This document shows, piece by piece, positions 59,177-64,000 of a stretch of DNA of 64,000 nt. Below the pieces are notes generated by a model. That model was not told the DNA's origin and searched no databases. It saw nothing but the letters and a program-made list of their open reading frames with translations. Position 1 is the stretch's first letter. Every line of letters starts with the position of its first letter. The stretch is taken from the NCBI GenBank assembly GCA_963804165.1, contig CAWDPO010000023.1, positions 64,001 through 128,000 on the forward strand, in the 5' to 3' direction. Position numbers and translations under genes: made by a program. The DNA is from an uncultured delta proteobacterium. GTDB taxonomy: Bacteria > Desulfobacterota > Binatia > UBA9968.

Positions 59177-60596
59177 TTAGCTATTCAAATGAAATACCAC
59201 CATCTTCAATTCGCTCATCTCCTGCACGGCATACTTCGGCCCCTCTTTGCCGAAGCCGGAATCTTTGAGACCGCCATAGGGCATCAAATCGACGCGCCAT
59301 TGCGATCCCCAGTTGACGTGCAGATTGCCGGCTTCCGCCTCGCGCGCGAACTTCATCGCCCATTCGACATTGTCGGTGAAAATGCCGGCGGAAAGACCGT
59401 AAACGCTATCGTTCGCCAGCGCGATCGCTTCTTCGATCGTCTCAAAGGGCGTCATCGCCACCGCCGGCCCGAATAATTCGTCGCGCGAGATGCGCATGTC
59501 CGGGTGCACATCCGCCACCACCGCCGGCAGATAAATCGCGCCGCGTCTGCCGCCGCCGGCGACCAGGCGCGCGCCACCGCTGACGGCTTCGCTGATCCAA
59601 TTGTCGACTCGAATCGCTTCACTCTCTTTTACCATCGGTCCGACTTTGGATTTTTCGTCAAGCTGATTACCTGTGGTTAGGGCTTCGACCTTTGGTTTCA
59701 TCGAGCTCAACAGATCGCCGTAAACCTTTTTTGCCGCCAAAACCCGTTGTGTCGATATACAAGTTTGGCCGGCATTGCCGTATCCGGTCATCGCCAAGAC
59801 GGTCGAAACTTTGTCCAAGTCCGCGTCGGGCATGACGATCACCGGACTATTCGAACCGAGCTCCATGGTTACTTTTTTAATTCCCGCCGTACGACAAATG
59901 CGCTCGCCGATCTCCCGGCTGCCGGTAAATGTGACCTTGCGCACGCGCCGGTCGGCGACCAACGCATCACCGATCTCGCCCCCCGAGCCGGTAAGGCATT
60001 GGATGCCTTCGGCAGGCAGACCGGCTTCGAGTAAAATCTCCGTCAGCTTCAGCGCCGACAACGGCGTATCCGAAGCCGGCTTTATGATAACGGAATTGCC
60101 GGCAGCCAGTGCCGGGTCCTACCTTATGGGCGACTAGGTTCAATGGAAAATTGAACGGCGCGATCGCCGCCACCACGCCGCAAGGGATGCGCAGGGTGAA
60201 ACCAAATTTTTTCGCGCCGGTCGGATCGGCATCCAACGGCACGGTTTCGCCGTACAAACGCTTGGCTTCTTCCGCCGAGCCCATGATGGTCTCGACCGCG
60301 CGGTTCGCCTCGCCGCGGCCTTCGGCGATGATTTTTCCTTCTTCTTTAGAAATAAGCTGACCCAATTCCTCGTTGCGGGCCGCCATCATGTCCGCCGCTT
60401 TGCGCAATATCTTCCAACGCTCATAGCTCGAGAGTTTGGCCATGACCTTGGCGCCGCGCTCGGCGTAGGCGAGCGCTTTCTCCAAGTCTTGGGCGTCGGC
60501 GCGCGGCACAGTATCGATCACCGAATTATCGAACGGGTTGGTCACTTCGATTTTTTTCGGCTTTTCGACCCAGTTACCGGCAAGAAATATTTTCAT
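59177..60596 (-). CDS. Aldehyde dehydrogenase family protein (single +1 frameshift near 60115)
   Basis: [15 protein letters not shown] joins [14 protein letters not shown] if one base of the ggg run at 60114-60116 is removed; [32 protein letters not shown]. Confidence 0.92.
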
Positions 60597-61916: not shown

Positions 61917-62609
61917 TCACGCGTTTCTAGGGCCAAAAAGCGCCGTGCCAATGCGCACGATCGTCGCGCCCTCTTCGACGGCGACGGCGTAATCGTGTGT
62001 CATACCCATGGACAATTCTTGCAGATCCACATTCAAATATCGCGACTCGTTTAGCTCTTCGCGCAGCTCCCGGAGCTTGCGAAAATAAGGCCGCACCTTT
62101 TCGGGATCGTCTCGAAAGGGCGGCACCGTCATCAACCCCTCGATGCGCAAGTTTGACAGCTTGGCGATCTCCTCGAGCAGCCTTGCAACGCCGTTTCGGT
62201 CGATGCCGCTCTTGCTTTCTTCCCCGCCGAGATTGACTTCGACAAGAGCGCGAATGTTCTTTCCGCGCCTACGTCCTTCCTTATCGAGCTCGCGCGCCAA
62301 TGCAACATTGTCCAGCGATTCGATCATGTCGAAGATCTCTACGGCCATTTTGGCTTTGTTGCGCTGCAAGCGGCCGATCATGTGCCACTCGACCCGGGCG
62401 GTAATTTGCTTTTTCTTTTCCTTCGCCTCCTGAACATAATTCTCGCCGACCAGGGTCACCCCGGCCGCGACGGCCATGCGCAGGGCGTCAATGCTCTGCG
62501 ATTTCGCCGCCGCGAGCAGTTTGATTTCACTCCCATCGCGCCCTGTTTTCGCCGCAGCTTCGCGTATATGATCGACAATGTTTCGGTAATTCGCTGCGAC
62601 ATCGACCAT
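61917..62609 (-). CDS. yggS: PLP homeostasis protein YggS
   Basis: GENYVQE, WHMIGRLQRNK, GLMTVPP, LSMGMTHDY..AVEEGAT.VRIGTALFG. Confidence 0.95.
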   Translation of the reverse strand: MVDVAANYRNIVDHIREAAAKTGRDGSEIKLLAAAKSQSIDALRMAVAAGVTLVGENYVQEAKEKKKQITARVEWHMIGRLQRNKAKMAVEIFDMIESLDNVALARELDKEGRRRGKNIRALVEVNLGGEESKSGIDRNGVARLLEEIAKLSNLRIEGLMTVPPFRDDPEKVRPYFRKLRELREELNESRYLNVDLQELSMGMTHDYAVAVEEGATIVRIGTALFGPRNA

Positions 62610-62719
62610 GAGGGCAATTGCTTACCATATTAAGAATGATAATTCACTCTCGCTGGCCGCGTGGCTTGATTACCGCGAGGGAGTACAGTAGGTGTTTCCG
62701 CGACGGAGGAAAAATCGGC

Positions 62720-63511
62720 ATGCCGTTTGACTACCTTCCGATTATGGCGCAGAACTCGGCGCCCAAGCCGCCGCGCGAATTGGCATCACCGTCGAAACCA
62801 ATGTGGTGCTCGCTTAAAAAACCGCTTAGCGAATCGCGCGTCGCCCTGCTGAGCAGCGCGGCGCTGCGGCTGGCGAACCAGGAGCCATTCATCCCACGCG
62901 AAGATCTGAGTTACCGACGTGTAGCGTCGGATCCAGGGGCCGGCGTGATTGTCGTCGATCACCATTCAGGGATCGGCAGAGTTCCGAAAGAGGATCCTGA
63001 GATTGTGTTCCCGCGCACGGCGTTGGCAGAGTTGGTTGACCAACGAATCGTCGGAATGCTCTCACCCTTTCACTTGTCCTTCATGGGCGGCGTGCGGCGG
63101 CACCGTGAGATCGAGAATGATCTCGCCCCTGCCCTTGCCCAAGAGCTAATGCAGGCCGAAGTCGATCTCGCCCTCCTCGTCCCCTATTGACCCTTTTGCC
63201 ACGAGACCGTCGGTCTCATCGCTCACGTTATCGAAGGCCAAGGCATTCCCACGTTGGTGATTGGCACGGCACTCGACATCATGAGTAAAGTCACCCCTCC
63301 GCGCGCGGTTTTTGTCGACCACCCCGTGGGTCGCACTTTCGGCCCGCCCCATGACCGGCCACGGAATGAAACCGTTCTTGCCAGAGTGTTGGCGGAATTG
63401 CCGCGCTGCACGCCATCCGGTGAGATTCGCGACCTTCGCTGCGAGTGGATACCTGGAGGCAGCCGCGCTTGGGAGGCGGAATTGCGCGCGGAAATGGTGC
63501 ACGACCGTTGA
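62720..63511 (+). CDS. PrdB/GrdB-family reductase selenoprotein B-like protein, 263 aa, Sec encoded by TGA 63188-63190
   Basis: ORFs 62618..63190 and 63254..63511 are in the same frame with only the TGA between them; reads LALLVPY-U-PFCHETVGLIAHVIEGQGIPT; GGAGGA RBS before ATG 62720; family-like segments KPLSESRVALLSS, D.EIVFP, SFMG, PPRAVFV..P.G..FG.P.D. Confidence 0.85.
63203..63217 (+). promoter_or_regulatory. Putative bacterial SECIS hairpin
   Basis: GAGACC-GTC-GGTCTC; apical loop starts with GU, 18 nt after the UGA. Confidence 0.7.
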
Positions 63512-63575
63512 CACTCGCAAAATTTTCATAGTTAATTGCCTGCGAGAAAAAACCCCGAAGGGACCGAAGACAGAT

Positions 63576-64000
63576 TTGATATCCACGAATTTTGTAAGAC
63601 TATTACTGGGCGTGGCCTGGACCCTGACGTTGGTTCTATCGGCCCAAGCCGCGCAGTTCTATGAAGGTAAGTCGATCAAGCTCATCGTTGGCTTCTCAGC
63701 CGGCGGCGGCTTCGACACCTATTCACGCCTGATCGCGCGCCATTTGGGCAGGCACATTCCAGGCAATCCGTCTATCGTCGTCGAGAACATGACCGGCGCC
63801 GCCAGCCTGGTTGCCGCCAATCATGTATATAAGGTAGCGAAACCCGACGGACTGACGATTCTCAACTTTCATGGCAATCAAGTGATCAATCAGGTGATCG
63901 GCAAACCAGGCATCGAGTTCGACGCCCGTAGGTTTGAATACATCGGCATCCCGACTCAGGATAACGTTGCCTGCGCGTTTACCAAAGCGAGCGGCATCAC
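63576..64000 (+). CDS. Tripartite tricarboxylate transporter substrate-binding protein (TctC/Bug family), partial
   Basis: Manual translation: signal peptide then FYEGKSIKLIVGFSAGGGFDTYSRLIARHLGRHIPGNPSIVVENMTGA...AKPDGLT; runs off window end; TTG start uncertain. Confidence 0.9.
   Translation, partial: MISTNFVRLLLGVAWTLTLVLSAQAAQFYEGKSIKLIVGFSAGGGFDTYSRLIARHLGRHIPGNPSIVVENMTGAASLVAANHVYKVAKPDGLTILNFHGNQVINQVIGKPGIEFDARRFEYIGIPTQDNVACAFTKASGI

Follow-up and report, generated by a model that had tools for sequence, protein, structure and literature searches.

One reading frame parted by a TGA

The window analysed here is a 64,000-nucleotide stretch of contig CAWDPO010000023.1 from an uncultured delta proteobacterium (assembly GCA_963804165.1), and the subject of this report is a PrdB-like selenoprotein gene whose coding sequence occupies 62720..63511 of its plus strand. 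At this locus, two plus-strand open reading frames (ORFs), 62618..63190 and 63254..63511, share one frame and are parted by a single TGA at 63188-63190. When this TGA is translated as selenocysteine (Sec, U), the frame runs from an ATG at 62720 to a terminal TGA at 63509-63511 and gives a product of 263 residues that reads ...ALLVPY-U157-P-F-C160-HETVGLIAHVIEGQGIPTL... around codon 157. A Shine-Dalgarno-like GGAGG, read from the sequence at 62705-62709 (+), lies 10 nt ahead of the ATG, and orthologs start with the same MPF(D/E)YLP as the source protein. The junction peptide, LLVPY-U157-PF-C160-HETVGLIAHVIEGQGIPT, agrees with the wording of the initial annotation, which had described the two same-frame ORFs correctly and had proposed that they form a hidden, orphan selenoprotein related to PrdB and GrdB; written across the Sec site alone, the peptide is LLVPY-U-PFCHETVGLIAHVIEGQGIPTLVIGTALDIMSK. 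The TGC codon at 63197-63199 (+) specifies Cys160, which, judging from the sequence and its translation, is the likely resolving cysteine of a UxxC pair and is invariant in a nine-sequence alignment (A2).

The in-frame TGA occupies a conserved column in orthologs and in more distant relatives. We fetched 80 metagenome loci whose products are 65-90% identical to the source protein and can be aligned with it over residues 1-263; 76 of these cover the Sec column and all 76 have TGA there. In loci from named genome records, which represent more distant relatives, the aligned column is TGA in 79 of 80 cases, the exception being a TGC in the locus L090, and the frame stays open on both sides of the TGA in 76/76 orthologs and 79/80 relatives. 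A six-frame search of 401 genomes of the same phylum (E <= 1e-10) returned matches in 112 genomes, with an in-frame TGA in all 150 match rows listed and at one identical motif and aligned column in each of the 31 loci inspected closely. Gene callers cut the protein at this codon, as the initial annotation had anticipated: 118 of the 120 best relatives in protein collections end exactly there, 116 of them being exactly 156 residues long and 2 more stopping at the same ...LLVPY, while the other two comprise one with Trp at the column from a TGA=W gene call and one that is frameshifted. Pairing of Cys and Sec at an aligned column is described as a criterion for recognising selenoproteins (PMC13188914). 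Among the best 150 cluster representatives at 50% identity found by profile search, the Sec column holds Cys in 82 (some library 'C' letters could stand for U), 40 stop just before it, 4 have Trp, and the remaining 24 carry Ser, Gly, Asp, Thr, Glu or Asn. Homologs with either Cys or TGA at this column, which the initial annotation had suggested looking for, are therefore both at hand. Use of TGA as a general sense codon was rejected as an account of the locus, given that the gene itself and many window ORFs end in TGA.

The genome also encodes the machinery for Sec insertion, in line with what the initial annotation would have required of it. The source genome has selA (610.3 bits), selB (357.2 bits), selD (384.7 bits) and a tRNA-Sec (76 bits), all above curated cut-offs, with selD, selB and selA adjoining one another outside the window at C16:139949-144339 (-). 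The selD gene of this genome carries an in-frame TGA of its own.

These observations bear on the rival reading that translation really stops at the TGA, or that the codon arose by sequencing error or marks a pseudogene, with the two ORFs being separate or defunct. Public gene calls do end at residue 156, and the assembly holds other broken genes. One of these is an aldehyde dehydrogenase gene at window positions 59177-60596 (-), present as a pair of ORFs (294 and 209 aa) that overlap; at the syntenic locus L068 the same gene is a single 479-aa ORF, and the split in the source genome appears to be a frameshift or assembly error. Against this reading, however, stand the same-column TGA with an open frame in the 76/76 and 79/80 independent loci, the existence of continuous Cys-containing homologues, a hairpin that is conserved and co-varying (see below) and the complete Sec machinery, and we consider it extremely improbable. 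A search of sequencing runs gave no run with more than 0.19 of the locus words and no RNA run among those listed. Taking the comparative evidence together, 62720-63511 almost certainly encodes a genuine selenoprotein, one that standard annotation breaks in two, and the two 'hypothetical' ORFs should be merged into one gene with Sec at codon 157.

The SECIS hairpin and decoding of UGA157

Immediately downstream of the UGA lies a candidate selenocysteine insertion sequence (SECIS) hairpin, GAGACC-GUC-GGUCUC, at 63203-63217 (+), in which a perfect 6-bp stem (63203-63208 with 63212-63217) closes a 3-nt GUC loop (63209-63211). The stem begins 12 nt past the UGA, or 15 nt from the first base of the TGA, and the loop begins 18 nt past it. 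The initial annotation had noticed the 6-bp hairpin and its GU-starting loop, both of which are present, and had placed the hairpin 18 nt downstream, which is the distance to the loop and not to the stem. A published model of bacterial SECIS (bSECIS) elements calls for a loop of 3-9 nt, a stem of 4-16 bp and an energy of <= -7.5 kcal/mol (PMC13188914, Fig. 2 legend), together with a G at the first loop position followed by U (with G allowed within the first two positions) and a spacing of 16-37 nt (PMC13188914). The hairpin has a 3-nt loop starting with GU, a 6-bp stem and a spacing of 18 nt, and its energy evaluated in a 48-nt context is -8.5 kcal/mol, all in agreement with that model.

Energy by itself does not set the hairpin apart, the folding energy of a 63-nt piece being unremarkable (z = -1.14, with 30 of 200 shuffles equally stable), and any argument for function has to come from related sequences. 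In an alignment of 111 sequences (100 distinct) that starts at the TGA, the hairpin register is kept, with standard pairs in 98.3% of 600 pair cells, and sliding the 3' partner as a control leaves 4.5-44% paired. Three of the six pairs are changed on both sides in some sequences: CG to GC in 5 sequences of the target clade, GC to AU in 2, and UA to AU or GC in 7. The resulting covariation score was matched by none of 500 shuffles. Some of the compensating bases are synonymous third positions, as in the Gly codons GGA or GGG with partner U, GGU with A, and GGC with G. Third-codon variation among the 76 orthologs follows the same outline, with 13-43 sequences off the majority at positions flanking the hairpin and 0-3 inside it. 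Together, these comparisons put the hairpin far beyond chance.

The single Cys form among the 80 genome loci, L090 8001-8762 from a Desulfobacterales metagenome-assembled genome (MAG), has TGC at the Sec codon. In this locus the hairpin has been lost and the peptide after the motif has changed from QSVGLI to QATAIV, a change suggesting that the RNA structure constrains some of the SVGL peptide conserved among Sec forms. In the best explanation, UGA157 is decoded as Sec by SelB and tRNA-Sec, guided by the 6-bp GUC-triloop hairpin. What shows SelB-dependent decoding through this hairpin is comparison among relatives, together with the Sec genes found in the genome.

Family placement and the question of a pyruvoyl partner

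Profile searches place the read-through protein in the PrdB/GrdB superfamily. It matches the NCBIfam model TIGR04483 (PrdB) over profile positions 17-234 of 238 with E 1.1e-29 and 103.5 bits, where the cut-off is 300; because the match is full length but falls below the cut-off, we class the protein, by profile, as a member of the PrdB/GrdB superfamily and not as a PrdB equivalog. Thirteen other family members score 111-208 bits on the same model, all below 300. The GrdB-type NCBIfam models match the C-terminal part only, and weakly, as for TIGR01918 (21.1 bits against a cut-off of 65.45, model positions 279-413 only). One result weighs against the placement: a Pfam scan of the read-through protein gave no family at E <= 1, PF07355 (GRDB) included, so that the GRDB search proposed in the initial annotation came back empty and the homology is visible only with NCBIfam models. 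The core of the initial proposal, a Sec-decoding gene of this superfamily with UxxC and a SECIS element, nonetheless holds up in the TIGR04483 match, the TGA conservation and the covariation of the hairpin. A profile built from 35 members matches 4069 clusters at E <= 0.001 and 310 at E <= 1e-30, and the PrdB-like selenoprotein family is widespread in soil bacteria.

Comparison with characterised systems shows both likeness and difference. Like PrdB of the Clostridium sticklandii type, the protein is of similar length and homologous throughout, has Sec in a UxxC motif at the equivalent place, and is encoded with a SECIS element after the UGA inside the coding region. In the prd operon of C. 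sticklandii and C. difficile, PrdB is encoded together with the pyruvoyl proprotein PrdA. By contrast, neither prdA nor any other prd gene adjoins the present gene, which has next to it the gene of a dedicated TctC-type binding protein (see below). Its product falls far short of the PrdB cut-off, and the host appears to be of a soil Binatia-like/deltaproteobacterial lineage and not a Stickland-fermenting clostridium. GrdB, GrdF and GrdH (PF07355, TIGR01917/01918) share homology in the C-terminal half of GrdB (positions ~215-431) with Sec at the equivalent column; unlike these proteins of ~430 aa, the present one has 263 aa and is without the GrdB N-terminal half, its gene is not adjacent to grdE and grdA, and neither PF07355 nor TIGR01918 recognises it at the thresholds given above. 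It is likely not a canonical D-proline reductase subunit, and its function is probably other than D-proline reduction.

A quick tree groups the window protein with its orthologs from four genomes in one clade on a long stem, with a Shimodaira-Hasegawa-like approximate likelihood ratio test (SH-aLRT) value of 100. The sister clade (SH-aLRT 98) includes the source genome's own paralogue on contig C6, and the C-terminal halves of three GrdB-like proteins of the source genome fall far outside, on a long separate branch. The paralogue, at C6:112370-113128 (-) outside the window (L038 8371-9129), is 32% identical to the window protein, with TGA at the same column, the motif FPF-U-PACHRSVGL and a hairpin in the same register. 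It differs in having a C-terminal extension with a CxC tail (RCNC), which is shared by the Cys forms P0018, P0021, P0031 and P0039, and in its neighbours, namely two flanking glutathione S-transferase (GST) genes, an NMT1-type binding protein and an amidohydrolase.

The initial annotation had further suggested that the gene is an orphan, standing alone without the pyruvoyl subunit. Locally this is what we observe. A Pfam scan of 15 ORFs, from ~5 kb upstream to ~10 kb downstream of the gene, found no prdA/grdE (PF09338), grdA or thioredoxin gene, as had been claimed. PF09338 was not seen in the neighbour clusters of 80 relatives, and a hidden Markov model built from the source genome's own GrdE had no match in 112 related loci totalling 1.24 Mb, in a search whose positive control matched. 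Looking beyond the neighbourhood, we examined the 28 genomes that hold the best phylum-scan matches, which are distant members with 32-40% identity. No PF09338 match was found in 26 of these 28 (19 of the 21 high-quality ones), and the same 26 are without a GRDA match. PF09338 is likewise absent from 5/5 complete-chromosome Binatia MAGs; these may overlap the 28, and the counts are not summed. Judged by these distributions, the family as a whole appears to need no pyruvoyl partner.

The source genome and its closest relatives present evidence that weighs against reading the protein as an autonomous enzyme. The 26/28 result covers relatives of only 32-40% identity, and all four genomes with true orthologs (72-77% identity; one of them, G409, is flagged unpublished) hold 2-9 PF09338 matches each. 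The source genome itself has five PF09338 matches spread over four loci, with a GRDB-type gene next in every case; the grd-type loci, all outside the window, are C11:51244-53586, C11:83933-86404, C45:201640-204035, C10:43551-46093 and C24:33480-33917. Three are intact pairs of grdE/G-like and grdB/F/H-like genes, whose B genes run up to a TGA at the Sec position (model positions 345-349 of the PF07355 / TIGR01917/01918 family); a fourth grdE/grdB-like pair is disrupted by one TGA and one TAA codon. The GrdB-like proteins reach 284-397 bits, where the equivalog cut-offs are 602-800, and carry the motifs U-G-T-G, U-G-T-C and U-G-T-S. A grdA gene with a TGA adjoins grdC-beta, whose product scores 451.5 bits against a cut-off of 450. 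The presence of PF09338 at four loci thus speaks against the orphan claim at the level of the genome; reductase genes elsewhere, here of the glycine/sarcosine/betaine type, are what the initial annotation had named as refuting it.

Such genes would allow the window protein to be a substrate-specific B-type subunit that acts in trans with the GrdE-like proteins, GrdA and GrdC of the source genome, as part of a dispersed reductase of the glycine/sarcosine/betaine/proline type. Apart from the gene content just described and the PF09338 matches in all four ortholog-bearing genomes, this proposal is favoured by the alignment to PrdB, which spans the whole protein, and by database records in which JGI labels fragments of the family PrdB. 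However, each PF09338 gene of the source genome already has an adjacent GRDB-type gene, the nearest of them sits on a different contig, both model scores lie well under their cut-offs (TIGR04483 and TIGR01918), and neither PF09338 nor GRDA occurs in 26 of the 28 genomes with distant members. In addition, the co-occurrence in five of five genomes may stem from the shared ancestry of closely related large genomes. We regard a subunit acting in trans as distinctly unlikely. The gene is locally an orphan and the genome-level picture is mixed: the stand-alone claim stands for the locus and for 26 of the 28 genomes with distant members, and is qualified by the unlinked grdE/grdB pairs, grdA and grdC. 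Independence from the GrdE-like proteins in the source genome is what we infer from this pattern.

Genomic pairing, possible function and significance

The gene lies between yggS and a TctC-type binding-protein gene, as initially annotated. On the other strand upstream are yggS (61917..62609, minus strand), yggT and an HD/OB protein gene; yggS encodes a pyridoxal phosphate (PLP)-binding protein of the Ala_racemase_N fold (PF01168, E 2.2e-22) and is a divergent neighbour outside the unit. Downstream follow two genes for solute-binding proteins (SBPs) of the TctC type, which belong to tripartite tricarboxylate transporters (TTT), and then a transposase gene. SBP1 begins at 63576..64000 (+) and continues past the window to C23:128598, and its product has a signal peptide, read by eye; SBP2 is a second tandem copy outside the window. 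On PF03401 (cut-off 27 bits), SBP1 scores 23 bits, below the cut-off, and SBP2 scores 29.9 bits, above it. A phmmer search with SBP1 against solved TTT binding proteins gave E 4.8e-9, and SBP1 is, on these matches, a probable distant member of the TTT family. No terminator-like site was found on the plus strand between the selenoprotein gene and SBP1. In the spacer before SBP1, a hairpin plus T run resembling a terminator is scored at window positions 63551-63569, and on the minus strand alone.

To the initial annotation, a link with the downstream transporter gene was a guess, and it gains support from the arrangement of related loci. We analysed 81 ortholog loci (76 metagenome, 4 genome and the source genome), which share ancestry, so that the counts are not independent. 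The first downstream ORF is a same-strand TctC-type gene in 40 of the 53 loci with at least 400 nt of downstream sequence, mostly at gaps of 23-70 nt from the selenoprotein gene. Upstream, yggS is present in only 24 of 51 ortholog loci. Both flanks are available for 32 loci: of the 15 with yggS upstream, 13 have the binding-protein gene next, and of the 17 with other genes there, 12 do. SBP1 has a median identity of 84% (n=35) to the neighbouring TctC-type genes at ortholog loci, compared with <=53% to its tandem copy SBP2 and <=37% to other copies in the source genome. These data show, by comparison of loci, a conserved pair of selenoprotein and TctC-type genes in the ortholog group.

What the pair says about function is limited by several observations that count against a transport-linked role. 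The TTT system is greatly expanded in this organism, and the 7.5-Mb source genome holds 73 TctC-like matches (E <= 1e-5) and 27 TctA matches (~18 full length). Next to the pair, neither TctA nor TctB was found. Elsewhere in the family at large the neighbours differ, with short-chain dehydrogenase/reductase (SDR) genes at 27 loci, luciferase-like genes at 16, GST at 8, peroxiredoxin at 8 and nitroreductase at 7. Moreover, an SBP is periplasmic and the enzyme cytoplasmic, and the neighbour is a weak functional clue.

A structural model offers a view of the motif. The AlphaFold2 model (pLDDT 92.1, pTM 0.92) has a Rossmann-like alpha/beta fold with a strand at 150-154, U157 in a loop and a helix at 158-173 whose first turn contains C160. 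Searches for related structures gave little: no PDB sequence came within E <= 1 by phmmer, the PDB copy searched yielding no PrdB or GrdB chain, and Foldseek against the PDB found no match at E <= 0.001. A wide VIA-align search gave a best Z of 7.8, to LacI/periplasmic-binding-type and SDR Rossmann folds; this lies within the range common for the tool, and we therefore draw no functional inference from the fold matches. In alignment A4, the charged residues D62, R66, H81, D92 and R195, far from the motif, are invariant.

The explanation we lean towards, with modest confidence, is a stand-alone selenoenzyme with a Sec/Cys redox pair and a substrate that arrives via the TctC-type protein. The enzyme would be a cytoplasmic protein of 263 residues, very distantly related over its full length to PrdB and to the C-terminal half of GrdB, from a large stand-alone family whose genes do not lie beside one for a pyruvoyl (PrdA/GrdE) subunit. 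A role as nucleophile and resolving thiol has been proposed for the Sec/Cys pair of PrdB in D-proline reductase. Here, Sec157 and Cys160 at the start of the alpha-helix would most likely act as a selenol/thiol redox pair: Sec157 would attack an electrophilic centre of the substrate, Cys160 would resolve the adduct to a selenenylsulfide, and a thiol system would re-reduce it. Since a dedicated periplasmic binding protein of the TctC type is encoded as its partner, the substrate would probably be a small carboxylate imported by a TTT. That the enzyme acts on a carboxylate delivered by the transporter is, taken on its own, a tentative idea.

This mechanism is apparently not universal in the family, which also counts against the proposal, because there is a subfamily without the resolving Cys and 24 of 150 cluster representatives have other residues at the Sec column. 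In the phylum scan, the loci L050, L053-L059 and L062 have U-P-L-D instead of U-P-V-C, with Asp at the position of Cys160; they retain the TGA and the hairpin and are missing the resolving Cys.

Alternatively, the protein might be a general selenol/thiol oxidoreductase, serving as an antioxidant or in disulfide or electrophile detoxification, that acts on proteins or reactive small molecules and has the SBP gene as a mere conserved neighbour. The UxxC at the N-terminus of a helix in the AlphaFold2 model speaks for this, the wider-family neighbours include the GST (also beside the paralogue), peroxiredoxin and nitroreductase genes counted above, and Table 3 of one survey puts PrdB among thiol-dependent redox families with UxxC (PMC1088965). 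The invariant D62, R66, H81, D92 and R195, distant from the motif, suggest instead a defined small-molecule site, and the ortholog-specific pairing with one binding-protein subfamily holds across contexts; we judge a general oxidoreductase unlikely. The preferred reading remains the stand-alone selenoenzyme with its TctC-type partner.

The existence of such PrdB selenoproteins is already known, having been catalogued in metagenomes since 2005. 'Proline reductase PrdB' (UxxC) is among the most abundant selenoprotein families counted in the Sargasso Sea, with 42 Sec and 1 Cys forms (PMC1088965), and in the Global Ocean Sampling (GOS) data, with 235 Sec and 110 Cys forms (PMC2398784). In the passages of these surveys that deal with the family, PrdB is assigned D-proline reduction (D-proline to 5-aminovalerate), with no mention there of an absence of PrdA (PMC1088965, PMC2398784), and two reviews count D-proline reductase (TIGR04483, UxxC) among the selenoproteins known from experiment (PMC9312934, PMC13188914). 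As described there, the family of the Sargasso Sea and GOS surveys resembles ours in its UxxC and in being mostly Sec forms in environmental DNA; the present ortholog group differs in its source, soil-type metagenomes, and in being paired with a binding protein. Most likely, the present family is part of, or sister to, the 'PrdB' of these surveys. Among database names of the cut orthologs, JGI often gives 'D-proline reductase (dithiol) PrdB' and NCBI gives hypothetical proteins of Candidatus Binatia. The description of the gene as hidden is therefore apt as far as gene callers split it, and overstated in that JGI already names the pieces PrdB and the family has been listed since 2005. A literature search with subscription journals and supplements outside its scope found no published statement that environmental PrdB homologues lack PrdA, and the partnerless genomes, the long-branch soil clade and the dedicated TctC-type pairing were likewise not found there.

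Since PrdA/GrdE and GrdA are missing from most of the tested genomes with distant members, the name PrdB may be wrong for a large group of Sec proteins, which gene callers also cut as a matter of routine. One could go further and suppose that the 'PrdB' selenoproteins of soil, and perhaps of the ocean, are not proline reductase subunits but autonomous selenoenzymes without a pyruvoyl partner, which in this lineage would reduce a carboxylate captured by the SBP; we offer this as a conjecture of low probability. The co-oriented, dedicated binding protein provides a handle for a substrate search via ligand screening. If the conjecture were true, the gene would represent a Sec-dependent catabolic or detoxifying reaction without a characterised counterpart.

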